Positions 4,087 through 50,935 of a DNA stretch of 64,000 bases are shown one piece after another. The stretch is from Campylobacter concisus. Lineage in GTDB: Bacteria; Campylobacterota; Campylobacteria; Campylobacterales; Campylobacteraceae. Below the pieces are notes generated by a model. That model was not told where the DNA came from. It made no database searches and was given only the letters and a program-made list of their open reading frames with translations. A program made the position numbers and the translations under genes. Location: contig JAHAKU010000007.1 in assembly GCA_018371535.1 (NCBI GenBank), positions 19,796-83,795 on the forward strand, written 5' to 3'. Numbering within the stretch: the stretch's first letter is position 1; each line of letters starts with the position of its first letter.

Positions 4087-4637
4087 TGAGTTCAAACTAC
4101 TTTACCATCGTTCATATCATCGTGCTTTTCGCGATCGCACTACTTTCTATTTTATTTCTTGTGCTCTCGCTTAGAGCCGAGAGAAAACTATTTTTATCAC
4201 TACTTTTTACAAACATTTTGGTCTCAACCACGCTTGCCATTTTTTTGATGCTAGTTCTTGATAAATACACCAAAAAAGGCATAGTCGAAGGCGTAAAAAG
4301 CGAGCGAGTGTTAAGAAATGAAAGCATTGTATTTCGTGGTCAAGTAAGAAATGTCGGTAAATTTACCATTAGCAAATGCACCCTTACAATTAAGCTCATA
4401 AATCAGCCGCTAAATAAAAACGATCTTGGCGGCGAGGCGCTATTTAAACCAAGCGGGATCTCATTTTTCTCATGGGTTTTTGGAGGCGATGAGGACGAGA
4501 GACCAAACACTGTGGCATATAAATTTGACGTAGCTCAAAATTTACCAAAGCAAAAAGCGGTGCCATTTACAGTGACTATGCCCTATCCGCCATATTTTAA
4601 AAATGGTATGAATATCACAAAACTTAGTTGCTACTAA
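4077..4637 (+). CDS. membrane protein of unknown function, paralogous architecture to the preceding gene
   Basis: same length (186 vs 185 aa) and same 2-TM plus C-terminal beta-rich domain layout; 4-nt overlap suggests co-translation. Confidence 0.4.
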   Translation: MFLMSSNYFTIVHIIVLFAIALLSILFLVLSLRAERKLFLSLLFTNILVSTTLAIFLMLVLDKYTKKGIVEGVKSERVLRNESIVFRGQVRNVGKFTISKCTLTIKLINQPLNKNDLGGEALFKPSGISFFSWVFGGDEDERPNTVAYKFDVAQNLPKQKAVPFTVTMPYPPYFKNGMNITKLSCY

Positions 4638-25342: not shown

Positions 25343-25678
25343 TGCGCTAGCTTCAAGCTTTTTATACTAAAAATAGCCGGTAAATTTGTAAATTTATCGG
25401 CTAAATTTAATTTATACAAAATACTTTCGAATTTCTTTAATTTTTACAGATAAAACCAGATATTGCAACGAAAATTTCACAAGAAAAACATTTCATCAAA
25501 ATTTATCAAAAACGTAAGGCAAAGTATCGTGAGATGAGTTTAATGGCTTTGCTCCCCTTGCGGTCGCAACTACAAGCAGAAGCAACGTAAAAAATTAGCA
25601 AAGATAAGACATTTTAGTCTATCGAGCTAAATTTTTACTAGCTCCATTAAAAATGCTCACGAGACGAGCCGCTAATTT

Positions 25679-33382: not shown

Positions 33383-33480
33383 TGGCGAGAGGATGAGAGA
33401 ATCGAACTCCCCACCAGACGGTCAACCGCCCAGTCATCGGGTTTGAAGCCCGTGAGCATCACCAGATTACTTTATCCTCC
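33383..33480 (-). tRNA. selC: selenocysteine-type tRNA (anticodon UCA), ~98 nt with long variable arm
   Basis: reverse complement reads GGAGGAUA…CGGG-CUUCAAA-CCCG…long extra arm…GGGAG-UUCGAUU-CUCUC-AUCCUCUC-GCCA; anticodon loop CUUCAAA is identical to E. coli selC; canonical T-loop; 3' GCCA. Confidence 0.6.
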
Positions 33481-33555
33481 GTGTGCGTTATTTTAGCAGA
33501 TTTAGATAAATTTTAGCCCATTTTCTATAAACTTTTTGAAATTACAAAAGGATTT

Positions 33556-47440: not shown

Positions 47441-47923
47441 ATGCGTAAATTTAGCCTTTTTGTTTTGATGTTTTTTGGTGTCATTTCTTTGGCAGGCGAG
47501 CTAAGCTTAGTTGAGAGTTTTAGGTTTGATGGCAGCACTTTTTATAAGAAGCAAGTGGTTAAAAATGAGAGCTTTTACTTTTTAAAAAATGAAAATATGG
47601 ACGAGCACTTTGCCGCTTTTAAGGTAAAGTTTGACAAAGATGTCAAGACAAAAAGCGAGCTAGAAGAGTTAAAAAGGGCTCTTAAGCAAGATAAAAACGT
47701 GCTTTTTAGCGAAGAAAATGATCAAATTTTAGCTCTTATAAAAGATGAAACTAAGAGCAAAAATATAGAAATAATCCACTTTTTGCTTAAAAAAGATGGA
47801 GTTTTGATGCTTTCATATGTGAGAATTTACGACCGACAAATATCAGCGGATGCGCTCAAACCAGTGCTTTTAAGCGAAGCTAGAAATTTTATGCTACAGA
47901 TGCCAAAGGTAGAAGCTAAGTAG
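47441..47923 (+). CDS. secreted hypothetical protein
   Basis: signal peptide; 160 aa; no recognisable domain. Confidence 0.35.
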   Translation: MRKFSLFVLMFFGVISLAGELSLVESFRFDGSTFYKKQVVKNESFYFLKNENMDEHFAAFKVKFDKDVKTKSELEELKRALKQDKNVLFSEENDQILALIKDETKSKNIEIIHFLLKKDGVLMLSYVRIYDRQISADALKPVLLSEARNFMLQMPKVEAK

Positions 47924-47991
47924 AGAGGTGTATGCGACGGCGCTACATATTGCATGGGGTTTGTATATCGATGAGCGTCAAGCAAATTTTG

Positions 47992-48275
47992 AAATTTCAT
48001 GAGCGAGTAATTTCGACTCTAAAATTTGAGCTAAGCAGTAAGCGAAGCCAAATTTTAGTAGTCAATTCTTAGGAGTGAGTGGAATTTTAAAATTTGCGCG
48101 ATAGTAAATTTCTATTTTTAAAAATACAGACTTTCTTTATTTTTAAAAAGGGAGACAAGGGGACTCGAGTTACGAGGCCGTCCCCTTATCCCCCTTTTTA
48201 AATCCCCTAAACCCCTCGCACGTTAGAAGTGCATGCGATAGCACTATCGTGCCGCATGTGTTAAAAACTCTGGCA
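47992..48275. repeat. intergenic repeat, copy A: ~107-nt unit (aaatttcatgagcgagtaatttcg…aaatttgcg) followed by terminator-like hairpin GGGAGACAAGGGGAC/GTCCCCTTATCCCCC and a GCATGC-bounded palindrome
   Basis: near-identical to copy C at 49836..50178 in the same orientation; contains a ~48-nt subunit (aaattttagtagtcaattcttaggagtgagtggaattttaaaatttgc). Confidence 0.75.
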
Positions 48276-48310
48276 AATTTTATTTATTAAGTCAGACAAG
48301 CTTAGGATAA

Positions 48311-48512
48311 ATTTTAAAATTTTATGAGCGAGCATATCACGGCTCTAAATTTAGTGCTAAACGTAGTGCAGCCTAAATTTAGTAGTCTGCTAAGGCGAGT
48401 GAGTAAAGATTTAAAAATTTGCCTAAAGATGCAAATTTGAGCTAAGCGGTAAGCGAAGCCAAATTTTAGTAGTCAATTCTTATGGGTGAATGAAAATTTA
48501 AAATTTGCAAAA
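48311..48512. repeat. degenerate copy B of the unit, containing two diverged ~48-nt subunits
   Basis: aaattttatgagcgagcatatcacggctctaaattt… and …gagctaagcggtaagcgaagccaaattttagtagtcaattcttatgggtgaatgaaaatttaaaatttgc. Confidence 0.6.
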
Positions 48513-48552
48513 TGGCATAAATAAAGCTATTTTTATTACACACCTTAAAGCC

Positions 48553-48906
48553 TCATAAATTTTTACCAAGTAAAATGCCAAGATAGCTTGCAAGCAGGCA
48601 AAGGCTAAGGTTTAAAAATATATTTAAACAGCCTTTTACGAGTTCGCCTTCTAGTAAAAATTTCACGCTATCAAGGCTAAAGCTTGAAAACGTGGTAAAG
48701 CCGCCAAGTATGCCAACGACTAAGAAAACCCTCACGCTTTGGCTTAAATTTAAGCAAAATAAAATGCCGATAATGAAGCTGCCAAGCACATTTACGCCAA
48801 GCGTGGCTAGCGGAAAGTGGCTAAATTTTAGTAGCTCGCCAGCTAAAAACCTGCATCCAGCTCCGATAAAGCCCCCAAGCCCAGCAAAAAGTAAATTTAC
48901 AAGCAT
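48553..48906 (-). CDS. crcB: fluoride ion channel CrcB/Fluc
   Basis: 117 aa, four TM helices, Fluc family motifs (GxxTTFSxF). Confidence 0.75.
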   Translation of the reverse strand: MLVNLLFAGLGGFIGAGCRFLAGELLKFSHFPLATLGVNVLGSFIIGILFCLNLSQSVRVFLVVGILGGFTTFSSFSLDSVKFLLEGELVKGCLNIFLNLSLCLLASYLGILLGKNL

Positions 48907-49745
48907 TAGTGGCAGATACTTGCAAAGCTAAAACCGCGCTTTGTAAGCTCCTCGATGTCCTTGCTCGCCTTCTCACCCTTTGCGGTGAGGTAGTCGCCTA
49001 TCACGATCGCATCGGCGCCATTTTCAAAGATCTCGTACTGCCTCTCGCCCAATATCTTCTCCCTGCCGCCAGCTATCATGACCCTAGTTTCTGGCAGTGC
49101 ACTTTTAGTCTCACGCACGATTTTTAGGGCTTCATTCGCACTAAGAGGCGGCTGATCAAGCCTTAGTGCGTCACTTTTTATGAAAAAATTTATAGGCGAC
49201 GAAAATGGCTCAAGCTCCTTTAGGCTAGCTCTAAAGCTCACCCTGTCGGCCTCGCTCTCGCCAACGCCGTAAATGCCGCCAGTGCAAAGCATGAGCCCAG
49301 CCCTTTTTGCGTCTAAATTTGTCTGATATCTCTCGTCCCAAGAGTGCGTTGTGCAGATTTTTGGGAAATATTCGCGGCTTGTTTCAAGGTTGTGGTTGTA
49401 GCTAAAAACGCCAGCATTTTTAAGCTCACAAAGCTGCTCGTAAGTTGCCATACCGTTACATGCGATGAGCATCAAATTTGGCACTTCTTTACTCACAGCT
49501 CTTGCTAAAGAAGCGATATAGTCGGTCTTTTTGTCATTTAGCCTAGCGCCACTTGTGACTAAGCAAAAGCCAAGAGCGTGGTTTTTATAAGCCATTTTGG
49601 CCTCGTCCACCACCTGCTGCACGCTTTTTTCTTTAAATTTCGTGATATCAGCGCCAGTTTTGGCACTTTGCGTGCAATAAGCGCAGTCTTCAGCGCAGTT
49701 TCCCTGTGTGACGGAGCATATCGCACAAAGCATGATTGTTTTCAT
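48906..49745 (-). CDS. bioB: biotin synthase
   Basis: 279 aa radical-SAM enzyme; CxxxCxxC (CAEDCAYC); BioB family. Confidence 0.85.
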   Translation of the reverse strand: MKTIMLCAICSVTQGNCAEDCAYCTQSAKTGADITKFKEKSVQQVVDEAKMAYKNHALGFCLVTSGARLNDKKTDYIASLARAVSKEVPNLMLIACNGMATYEQLCELKNAGVFSYNHNLETSREYFPKICTTHSWDERYQTNLDAKRAGLMLCTGGIYGVGESEADRVSFRASLKELEPFSSPINFFIKSDALRLDQPPLSANEALKIVRETKSALPETRVMIAGGREKILGERQYEIFENGADAIVIGDYLTAKGEKASKDIEELTKRGFSFASICH

Positions 49746-49835
49746 TTTTGATCCTTTTTTGGGGTGTATTATAGCTTTGGTAGGTTTAAAATTTAAGTAT
49801 GATCGTCTTTAATTTACGAAAAATAGGCAAATTTT

Positions 49836-50178
49836 AAAATTTCATGAACGAGTAATTTCGGCTCTAAAATTTGAGCTAAGCGATGAGTGAAGCCAAATTT
49901 TAGTAGCCAATTCTTGCGAGTGAATGGAATTTTAAAATTTGCAAAAATATTTTTAGAAATTTAAAGTTTTGCTTTTATTTAAAGGGGAGACAAGGGGACT
50001 TGAATTTTGTTTTGCAAGCTCGCAACTGCAGGGCAAACACGAAGTCCGTCCCCTTATCCCCTTTTAAAATCCCCTGTCTGCTTGCAGTTACGAGTCGAAG
50101 TCGAAGTAAAGCCCGACGACGTTAGAAGTGGCATGCAATAGCACTATCGTGCAGCATGCGTTTTAAAACTCTATCAAA
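49836..50178. repeat. intergenic repeat, copy C (unit plus hairpin module, with insertions in the hairpin loop)
   Basis: see 47992..48275. Confidence 0.75.
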
Positions 50179-50215
50179 TTTACTGCAAGTCTGGCAAAAA
50201 CTTAAATTTACAGGA

Positions 50216-50935
50216 TCATCTTTTCTTATAAATTTCCACCCTCTCTTTTAAAAGCCCTGTTTTTAAATTTGGCAAAGCACTAAGCTCGTCAAAAAGTCCA
50301 AAAAGTGCGTGCTGTGGTGGCAGACTGAGGTGGGTGAGGGATTTTAGAGATAAGATAGGCGAGTAGTCCTTGCTTTTTAGCCTAGCCACCAAGATCACAA
50401 GGCTGGTTAGTCCGGGCATCTGGCGTAAAAACTCTAGGCTATCTATGTGGATAAATTTAGGCGAAAGTCCGTCGCCACTGATCTCTAGGCTCTTTAAATT
50501 TTGCAAATTTGAAAGCGCAGAGTAGTCGCTTATCTTTTGAAAATTCTCCACCGCAAGGCTTTCAAGCCCAGTAAGCGTCGCGATCGGCGCGATGCTTTTT
50601 ACGTTAGCTCCAGAGCCTACAAAAAGGCTCTTTAGACTAGAAAGATTTGCTAGCGCATCAAGGCTCTCATACGAGCCCCATTTGATGTGAAGGCTCTTTA
50701 TATTTCTTTGGCAGCACACCGCGTCAAAGAGCTCTTGAGGTATTTTGGTGCAAAAGCTAAGCTCATCAAATGCGTCTTGTTCGCTTCTTAAAAAGTCGCA
50801 CCACTCATCAAGCACCGCTCTTTTTTGTTTGGCGGTTTTATACTGCGGCGTGAAGCTGTCCCCTAGCTGCGTGCAGTTTATCACAAGGCTCTTTTGCCCT
50901 TTATACTGGCTAACTTCTATGATGGTTTCAGGCAT
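50216..50935 (-). CDS. cytoplasmic leucine-rich-repeat (LRR) protein
   Basis: 239 aa; ~8 tandem LxxLxxLxL-type repeats (…LSNLQNLKSLEISG…, …LTSLVIL…, …LKSLTHLSL…); no signal peptide. Confidence 0.5.
   Translation of the reverse strand: MPETIIEVSQYKGQKSLVINCTQLGDSFTPQYKTAKQKRAVLDEWCDFLRSEQDAFDELSFCTKIPQELFDAVCCQRNIKSLHIKWGSYESLDALANLSSLKSLFVGSGANVKSIAPIATLTGLESLAVENFQKISDYSALSNLQNLKSLEISGDGLSPKFIHIDSLEFLRQMPGLTSLVILVARLKSKDYSPILSLKSLTHLSLPPQHALFGLFDELSALPNLKTGLLKERVEIYKKR

Follow-up and report, generated by a model that had tools for sequence, protein, structure and literature searches.

An intergenic mosaic repeat of Campylobacter concisus with a strand-constrained long hairpin brackets crcB-bioB

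The 64,000-nt stretch of Campylobacter concisus DNA analysed here (the window; 40.8% G+C) has the gene order flagellin-topA-LRR-bioB-crcB-(hypothetical)-nhaP-gltA, where LRR denotes a leucine-rich repeat protein gene, and contains two long non-coding gaps around crcB-bioB (47924-48552, 629 nt; 49746-50215, 470 nt), as an earlier note on this DNA had pointed out. Contigs that match it exactly or almost exactly were obtained from human metagenomes, and homologues of its BioB carry the name C. concisus. The same composite repeat is present in both gaps. Its modules are a long hairpin unit (U), a G/C-rich hairpin (HP) and a short palindromic hairpin bounded by GCATGC (PAL), and BLAST found no further U copies in the window outside these two gaps. 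The fluoride channel gene crcB lies against the end of the biotin synthase gene bioB, and because of their 1-base overlap the two are probably co-transcribed. A riboswitch or other Rfam RNA was considered and rejected, as 47850-50300 gave no covariance-model match to any family, fluoride and other riboswitches included, at gathering score or, beyond chance, at E ≤ 10. This agrees with the earlier failure to see a fluoride riboswitch near crcB/bioB. No tRNA or tmRNA remnant was found in the repeat region.

The positions of the modules are collected in Table 1. A full U folds back on itself as a single long, imperfect hairpin whose ends form inverted arms of 19 nt (GCAAATTTTRAAATTTCAT, 89–95% complementary), and the full units of the window fold at –43 to –47 kcal/mol (z = –6.8 to –7.9 compared to shuffled sequences). 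Over 116 nt, U1 and U4 share 90.5% identity (BLAST, E = 4e-42). The true unit length is thus 116 nt, with three full copies and one 5'-truncated copy, rather than the ~107 nt first proposed, and the four ~48-nt subunits counted earlier, although real, are not independent: they are the 3' arms of the four U copies. The G/C-rich hairpin and the GCATGC palindrome were both located in each gap. The reported difference between the HP loops also holds (15 vs 48 nt), and the "shuffled blocks" noted in copy C turned out to be two extra segments, X within the loop and Y in the interval between HP and PAL, with a common core, CTGCTTGCAGTTRCGAG. HP-A, with A and T runs on its flanks, resembles a bidirectional intrinsic terminator and is predicted to be more stable on the minus strand than on the plus strand (–38.2 vs –29.5 kcal/mol). 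At its 5' end, array A in fact begins with the degenerate PAL that follows the secreted hypothetical gene; at the orthologous position of locus L073 the PAL is better preserved (GCATGTGGCGGCGCTTCGCACTGCATGG). U4 runs antisense to bioB and has its start 81 nt upstream of the start codon of that gene. The truncated U3 copy also adjoins crcB in the strains of loci L024, L044 and L052.

Table 1. Modules of the two repeat arrays and the genes they bracket, in window coordinates
Feature	Position	Strand	Remarks
Degenerate PAL hairpin GTATGCGACGGCGCTACATATTGCATGG	47930-47957	plus	6 nt past stop of 160-aa secreted hypothetical gene (orf160)
Linker related to the ~33-nt L33, which precedes U units	47958-47981	plus	consensus linker TAAATTTGCTTTGTCAAATCAGATAAGTGTCAAG
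U1, long-hairpin unit, major subfamily a, 116 nt	47982-48097	plus	–43.3 kcal/mol, z = –6.8
AT-rich leader, U to HP	48098-48141	plus	several leader types recur across copies
HP-A, type-1 G/C-rich hairpin, 15-nt loop	48142-48202	plus	arms 48142-48164 and 48180-48202
C-rich connector AAATCCCCTAAACCCCTCGCACGTTAGAAGT, kept between HP and PAL	48203-48230	plus	from repeat finding
PAL-A, GCATGC-bounded hairpin	48231-48259	plus	lower stem 7 bp, 5' bulge 3 nt, upper stem 4 bp, loop 4 nt
PAL tail and L33 linker	48260-48306	plus	L33 match 48272-48307, overlapping base 1 of U2
U2, full U, divergent subfamily b	48307-48422	plus	inner stem re-written with compensating changes
U3, 5'-truncated U	48433-48508	plus	model positions 41-116 only
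crcB	48553-48906	minus	gene bracketed by arrays; context, not part of the repeat
bioB	48906-49745	minus	gene bracketed by arrays; context, not part of the repeat
U4, subfamily a, 116 nt	49827-49942	plus	–47.2 kcal/mol, z = –7.9
AT-rich leader	49943-49977	plus	from repeat finding
HP-C, type-1 G/C-rich hairpin, 48-nt loop	49978-50068	plus	arms 49978-49999 and 50048-50068
X segment in HP-C loop, "X2" orientation	50007-50038	plus	recurs in copies elsewhere
Y segment TGTCTGCTTGCAGTTACGAGTCGAAGTCGAAGTAAAG, optional insert between HP and PAL	50075-50111	plus	recurs elsewhere
PAL-C hairpin	50131-50159	plus	56 nt before LRR gene stop codon (gene end 50216)

The window taken alone might suggest a local segmental duplication around crcB-bioB without wider meaning, its copies being confined to the two crcB-bioB gaps. 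A first scan with an exact 21-mer from the U left arm against one genome per bacterial species gave more than 116 stretches among the matches listed, all of them from C. concisus or from Campylobacter metagenome-assembled genomes (MAGs). A U profile run on the fetched loci found at least 290 copies, including 242 of full length, in at least 37 assemblies, with at least 19 copies in the best-sampled one; clustering of the flanking proteins distinguished about 32 or more intergenic site types. HP and PAL accompany U at these other loci. The local duplication, to which we attach next to no weight, is refuted by the hundreds of copies that 37 C. concisus assemblies carry at ~32 other sites, and these copies bear out the multi-copy family that had been proposed. 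Contrary to what the earlier note had implied, the repeat is not special to the crcB-bioB cassette, since the same arrays stand between unrelated housekeeping genes (leuA, dnaE, pyk, dnaJ, htpX and a cytochrome c gene are among the neighbours). The plasmids of PLSDB and the phage records contained no copy, and in IMG/VR only two contigs matched. The literature on C. concisus repeats, miniature inverted-repeat transposable elements (MITEs) and small RNAs gave no description of it. The repeat is a previously undescribed, C. concisus-specific, non-coding family of a familiar bacterial repeat kind, and neither a riboswitch nor a gene.

The modules follow the same order at each locus: PAL, a ~30-nt linker, U, an AT-rich leader, HP, the C-rich connector, then again PAL, linker and U. 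The period is ~300 nt, and one to five U units make up an intergenic array. U-to-U spacing is bimodal, with either ~33 nt, occupied by the conserved linker, or 137–270 nt, occupied by an HP-PAL module. The modules of an array are co-oriented; mixed U orientation was seen in only one of 147 arrays, and inverted HP-PAL modules are rare. One such inverted module lies between two co-oriented U units in L122 (2758-2925) and fits recombination between the self-complementary arms of the adjacent units. A CRISPR array, with its 23–50-nt identical repeats and unique spacers, was rejected, as the repeats here are 116 nt long and the would-be spacers are themselves repeated modules.

Pairing within U is conserved through extensive sequence change. 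The hairpin derived from U1 was paired in 95% of 6418 cells when pairs were counted explicitly over 150 distinct U copies, and compensatory double changes were present at 17 pairs; sliding the 3' partner by 1–3 columns left only 25–53% of the cells paired. Explicit counting replaced RNAalifold, which returned no structure from the 150-copy alignment, probably due to gappy columns. The U copies fall into three subfamilies whose inner stems are fully re-written yet complementary, although this amounts to few independent events. A/G polymorphisms opposite T are scattered over the unit, with 474 G.T cells against 48 A.C cells, and the plus strand was the more stable one in all 150 copies (mean –38.6 vs –28.2 kcal/mol). 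Pairing of U is therefore constrained on one strand only. This suggests that U acts in a single-stranded form, either RNA or single-stranded DNA (ssDNA), and not as a double-stranded binding site for a transposase. The earlier argument for structure over drift is thus supported for U, and also for PAL (see below), where pairing is likewise kept through compensatory changes.

The one-strand constraint bears directly on the MITE-like element suggested earlier, in which a DDE transposase supplied in trans would move U in double-stranded form, and pairs of U would mobilise the enclosed HP-PAL or crcB-bioB as a composite transposon. The 19-nt terminal inverted arms, the 116-nt size, the AT-rich ends and the many copies are those of a MITE; as U stands at both ends of most arrays, any U...U block has inverted termini, and U copies flank crcB-bioB in each of its different contexts. 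However, no target-site duplication was present at the ends of 12 distinct solitary U units, and insertions that are truly solitary are almost absent. The units are not scattered but co-oriented, with fixed linkers or HP-PAL between them, and A-to-G changes opposite T are tolerated ~10 times more than changes yielding A.C, as expected for pairing on one strand. No parent or partner insertion sequence with ends GCAAATTTTAAAATTTCATG was found in ~0.95 Mb of sampled C. concisus DNA, in PLSDB plasmids or in phage records, and reciprocal recombination between arrays can yield all of the alternative contexts. We consider a MITE quite unlikely.

In PAL (28–29 nt), a 3-nt bulge, invariably on the 5' side, separates a GCATGC(R) lower stem from an upper stem of 4 bp, which is closed by a loop of 3–4 nt. 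It was paired in 95% of cells, with compensatory changes at all four upper-stem pairs. HP occurs as two stem haplotypes, type 1 (GGGAGACAAGGGGAC / GTCCCCTTATCCCCC) and type 2 (GGGGGAAGAGGC / GCTCCCTTCCCCC), and among the unique modules 77 have matched arms and four are chimeric. Since the arms are only 15–50 nt apart, these haplotypes are weak evidence of covariation, and the earlier argument from a conserved HP stem with a differing loop loses most of its force. Type 1 has a 15–19-bp stem with T4-5 on both strands; the minus strand was more stable in 44 of 50 copies, and two A.C mismatches of the plus strand become G.U on the minus strand. Read on the minus strand, the window copy has a perfect stem followed by T5 and would take the textbook form of an intrinsic terminator. 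A promoter/terminator scanner reported no terminator at HP, but its loop limit is 8 nt and HP loops are longer. That U and HP prefer opposite strands in the same array is unusual, and offers a testable feature for the study of repeat-derived terminators and 3'-UTR hairpins. In type 2, the G5 and C5 runs have grown to homopolymer tracts in two loci, A10G9 in L018 (2846-3084) and C10 in L070 (1312-1547). Campylobacter phase variation uses such homopolymer tracts; those in L018 and L070 are intergenic, within arrays.

The covariation of U, with its many G.U pairs on one strand, and an HP with a T run following U on that same strand would also fit a small-RNA gene or a cis-regulatory RNA of the neighbouring genes in each period, U being the structured RNA and HP its terminator. 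No conserved promoter was seen before U by eye (no formal scan was made), which argues against a dedicated small-RNA gene. The 27–33 nt preceding U belong to several unrelated types and lack a conserved –10 box, and the only TAAAAT lies within the U left arm, from where it would cut off the outer stem. Furthermore, the copies adjoin unrelated genes in any relative orientation, and Rfam gave no match. The periods also have no conserved small ORF: no ORF peptide 8-mer was common to more than 19 of 73 periods, and indels between periods shift the reading frames. We therefore regard small-RNA or cis-regulatory RNA periods as very improbable. A type I toxin-antitoxin repeat locus of the LDR/SIB kind was rejected because no small ORF is conserved per period.

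The arrays are not placed at random with respect to gene orientation. With the array scored as plus, the upstream and downstream genes were convergent (+,–) at 17 of the 32 sites, both on the minus strand (–,–) at 12 and both on the plus strand (+,+) at three; no site was divergent (–,+). Convergent sites were ~4-fold enriched over the 13% background (p = 1e-7), whereas the lack of divergent sites is only suggestive (p = 0.06). At the tandem sites the array was antisense to its neighbours in 12 of 15 cases (p = 0.035). The median distance from the array edges to the flanking stop codons was 64–84 nt. In four single-contig genomes, array orientation reversed between the chromosome halves. Replication direction could not be separated from gene orientation as the basis of this reversal, as GC3 skew was too noisy per locus and the GC skew of the window tracks gene orientation.

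At orthologous sites the number of periods varies between strains; downstream of crcB at the bioB locus, it ranged from one to five U units. The genes beside the arrays vary as well. In the window and most strains, crcB-bioB lies between orf160 and LRR-topA, but it lies between orf160 and a cytochrome c gene in L017 and between fam18 and the cytochrome c gene in L076. Without crcB-bioB, orf160 adjoins the cytochrome c gene in L019, and fam18 adjoins it in L028, L009, L087 and L046. The pair thus occurs in three different contexts, with arrays on both sides each time, and behaves as a relocatable block, in line with the small cassette that the earlier note had proposed. All five arrangements can be derived by reciprocal recombination between arrays; the excision of a circle and its re-integration through direct repeats is an alternative. 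More generally, the arrays coincide with synteny breakpoints and with differences in gene content. One MAG (L016:2872-3633) lacks the LRR gene and has only a three-unit array to separate topA from bioB, so that the LRR gene is presence/absence-polymorphic at an array. In another strain (L046:1748-3290), an insert of ~1.5 kb interrupts the 3' inner arm of a U unit and carries a 131-aa ORF with a weak Ntox50 match (E = 7.6e-4, below the Pfam cut-off), a small downstream 101-aa ORF without a family, and further coding-looking sequence. This insert may be an orphan polymorphic-toxin/immunity cassette that landed in the repeat.

Related species show the locus in other states. Campylobacter sp. RM13119 has the order topA-metallophos-bioB-nhaP-gltA with gaps of only 43 and 15 nt, without the repeat, crcB, orf160 or LRR. 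C. curvus keeps the RM13119 gene order, but its gaps of 510 and 250 nt are filled with a different repeat family of its own. From this comparison, the C. concisus arrays sit exactly where genes were gained. As crcB is missing from the bioB locus in both C. curvus and RM13119, its pairing with bioB is a C. concisus novelty. The C. curvus gaps (L126:2991-3500 and 4341-4590) contain three inverted pairs across bioB (23–40 nt, 87–89% complementary) and three copies, in both orientations, of CTGCTTGCAGTTGCGA, a core common to X and Y. X and Y thus have the look of a smaller and older element that the mosaic has come to contain. A degenerate X/Y core with two mismatches (TCTGCTTGTAGTTGCGAC) also lies far from the arrays in the window, on the minus strand at 25563-25580 within the intergenic region 25343-25678; 0.08 such matches are expected by chance per window.

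In its organisation the repeat is closest to known bacterial mosaic repeats. Like the bacterial interspersed mosaic elements (BIMEs) of E. coli and other Enterobacteria, it is an extragenic mosaic of short motifs in fixed order, with small imperfect palindromes and a variable number of tandem periods, located after gene ends and without target-site duplication. BIMEs serve as transcript-end hairpins and as recombination substrates. PAL, at 28–29 nt and with covarying pairs, fits the 20–40-nt palindrome of repetitive extragenic palindromic (REP) elements and BIMEs, but the dominant unit here is the 116-nt U. BIME units of ~35 nt alternate in inverted orientation, whereas the C. concisus modules are co-oriented. 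No GTAG tetranucleotide of the REP type adjoins PAL, which is preceded by ...ACGTTAGARGTG or ...ACGTTCAAGGNG; BIMEs number in the hundreds of copies rather than the tens seen here, and the sequences are unrelated. The Neisseria intergenic mosaic elements (NIMEs; RS units flanked by dRS3) and the Neisseria minimal mobile elements share with the repeat the intergenic arrays of 50–150-nt units with short conserved repeats between them, the restriction to a species and the location where gene content differs between strains. NIMEs are thought to act through homologous recombination after transformation. The C. concisus repeat differs in lacking a 20-nt dRS3-like inverted repeat and any visible link to filamentous-phage integration, in having units that are themselves long hairpins, and in its unrelated sequence. 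The BOX elements of Streptococcus pneumoniae (boxA-(boxB)n-boxC) are likewise modular, non-coding, intergenic and species-restricted, with a variable number of internal modules and stable predicted hairpins (PMC3049150). In BOX one internal box is reiterated, whereas in C. concisus whole periods are, and sizes and sequences differ. The Correia elements of Neisseria and the ERIC/IRU elements of Enterobacteria resemble U as long imperfect palindromes of ~100–150 nt with terminal inverted arms. Correia and ERIC/IRU elements form RNA hairpins when co-transcribed and affect mRNA processing. Correia elements, however, are single insertions in either orientation with a duplicated TA, and ERIC is present as one copy per site, whereas U is not flanked by a duplication, keeps one orientation within its arrays and comes together with HP and PAL modules.

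We favour, with a little better than even confidence, that the arrays are a BIME/NIME/BOX-like mosaic repeat, a source of terminator hairpins and of sequence on which homologous recombination can act. HP type 1 would act as a bidirectional intrinsic terminator, best matched to a minus-strand gene reading into the array. U would work as a hairpin that only one of its strands forms when single-stranded. The simplest form of this would be an RNA hairpin in the 3' UTR of the gene upstream; an ssDNA structure needed when the element is copied is the alternative. Arrays would grow, shrink, homogenise and swap flanks by RecA-type homologous recombination, through unequal crossing-over, gene conversion and exchange between arrays, probably helped by natural transformation. 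Recombination of this kind would make crcB-bioB a relocatable block without a dedicated enzyme. C. concisus, a pathobiont of mouth and gut, is genetically very heterogeneous, and the repeat would give its plasticity a concrete substrate, one that marks synteny breakpoints and the junctions of gene gain and loss. It would also explain why short-read assemblies break at these loci, many matches being at contig ends. Array length offers a ready marker for strain typing, and the arrays are prone to be annotated as long "empty" intergenic regions or as regulatory RNAs of bioB/crcB.

Several points weigh against this interpretation. Type 2 HP (28 of the 81 unique modules) has no T run on either strand, so that some periods cannot be canonical terminators. 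At 12 of 32 sites, both neighbouring genes run antisense to the U-sense strand; together with inner U units that lie behind a terminator, this makes RNA-level selection on every U hard to justify, and yet the one-strand constraint is held by all U copies, including those that the neighbours cannot transcribe in that sense. Homologous recombination accounts for variation at occupied sites but not for the first colonisation of ~32 unrelated sites. The search for a clean empty site gave only a minimal one-unit array (L073) and an imprecise replacement (L096 vs L053). Finally, the site census was drawn from the 116 or more stretches with an exact match to the U 21-mer, and its counts are lower bounds.

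Since recombination does not account for the seeding of sites and the constraint extends to U copies that the neighbouring genes cannot transcribe in that sense, an enzyme acting on ssDNA hairpins stays alive as a rival, although we think it unlikely; the MITE, the small-RNA gene array and the purely local duplication are each less likely than this. U and/or PAL would be sites for a strand-specific enzyme that seeds sites and shuffles cassettes, either a Y1 HUH transposase of the REP-associated or IS200/IS605 type or an integron-like tyrosine recombinase. One-strand pairing, the absence of target duplications and the reversal of array orientation between chromosome halves would all fit, as would PAL itself, a short hairpin bulged on a fixed side like the protein-recognised hairpins of REP, attC and IS608. 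U resembles integron attC sites, which are imperfect palindromes of ~60–140 nt that fold strand-specifically, bracket gene cassettes and have conserved outer arms with a variable but compensated centre. However, the ends of U, GCAAATTTTAAAATTT ... AAATTTTAAAATTTGC, do not carry the attC core sites R''/R' (RYYYAAC ... GTTRRRY), PAL lacks the GTAG, and an integron cassette array has intI/attI and one ORF per attC, whereas the C. concisus flanks are housekeeping genes, with no integrase or attI, and most intervals between U units are geneless. A tblastn search with an IS608 TnpA sequence found no Y1 transposase-like match in the window and 123 loci (~0.95 Mb), no RAYT (REP-associated tyrosine transposase) gene was seen there, and the flanking gene families include no recombinase or transposase. 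Gene orientation explains the orientation bias equally well, and by the gene-orientation proxy the U-sense strand lies on the leading-strand template, the strand less exposed in single-stranded form. A more specific proposal is that a recombinase so far unrecognised in Campylobacter uses U, by itself or together with PAL, as a recombination site in single-stranded, strand-specific form; this seems to us decidedly unlikely. If it were true, the arrays would serve for docking and excision, true mobile cassettes would include crcB-bioB and the toxin-immunity insert of L046, and the whole would resemble an integron or a REP/RAYT system but lack the known enzymes.

Some minor observations concern other genes. 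In L023, the 7 kb that separate two arrays were considered as an island, which was rejected because the genes there are ordinary and partly frameshifted. Also in L023 (4519-6092; complete genome CP147775), a Na+/H+ exchanger gene is split into several overlapping ORFs, which reflects either a pseudogene or long-read indel errors. In the window, a selenocysteine tRNA gene with anticodon TCA lies on the minus strand at 33387-33481 (Rfam tRNA-Sec, 50.4 bits, and ARAGORN).

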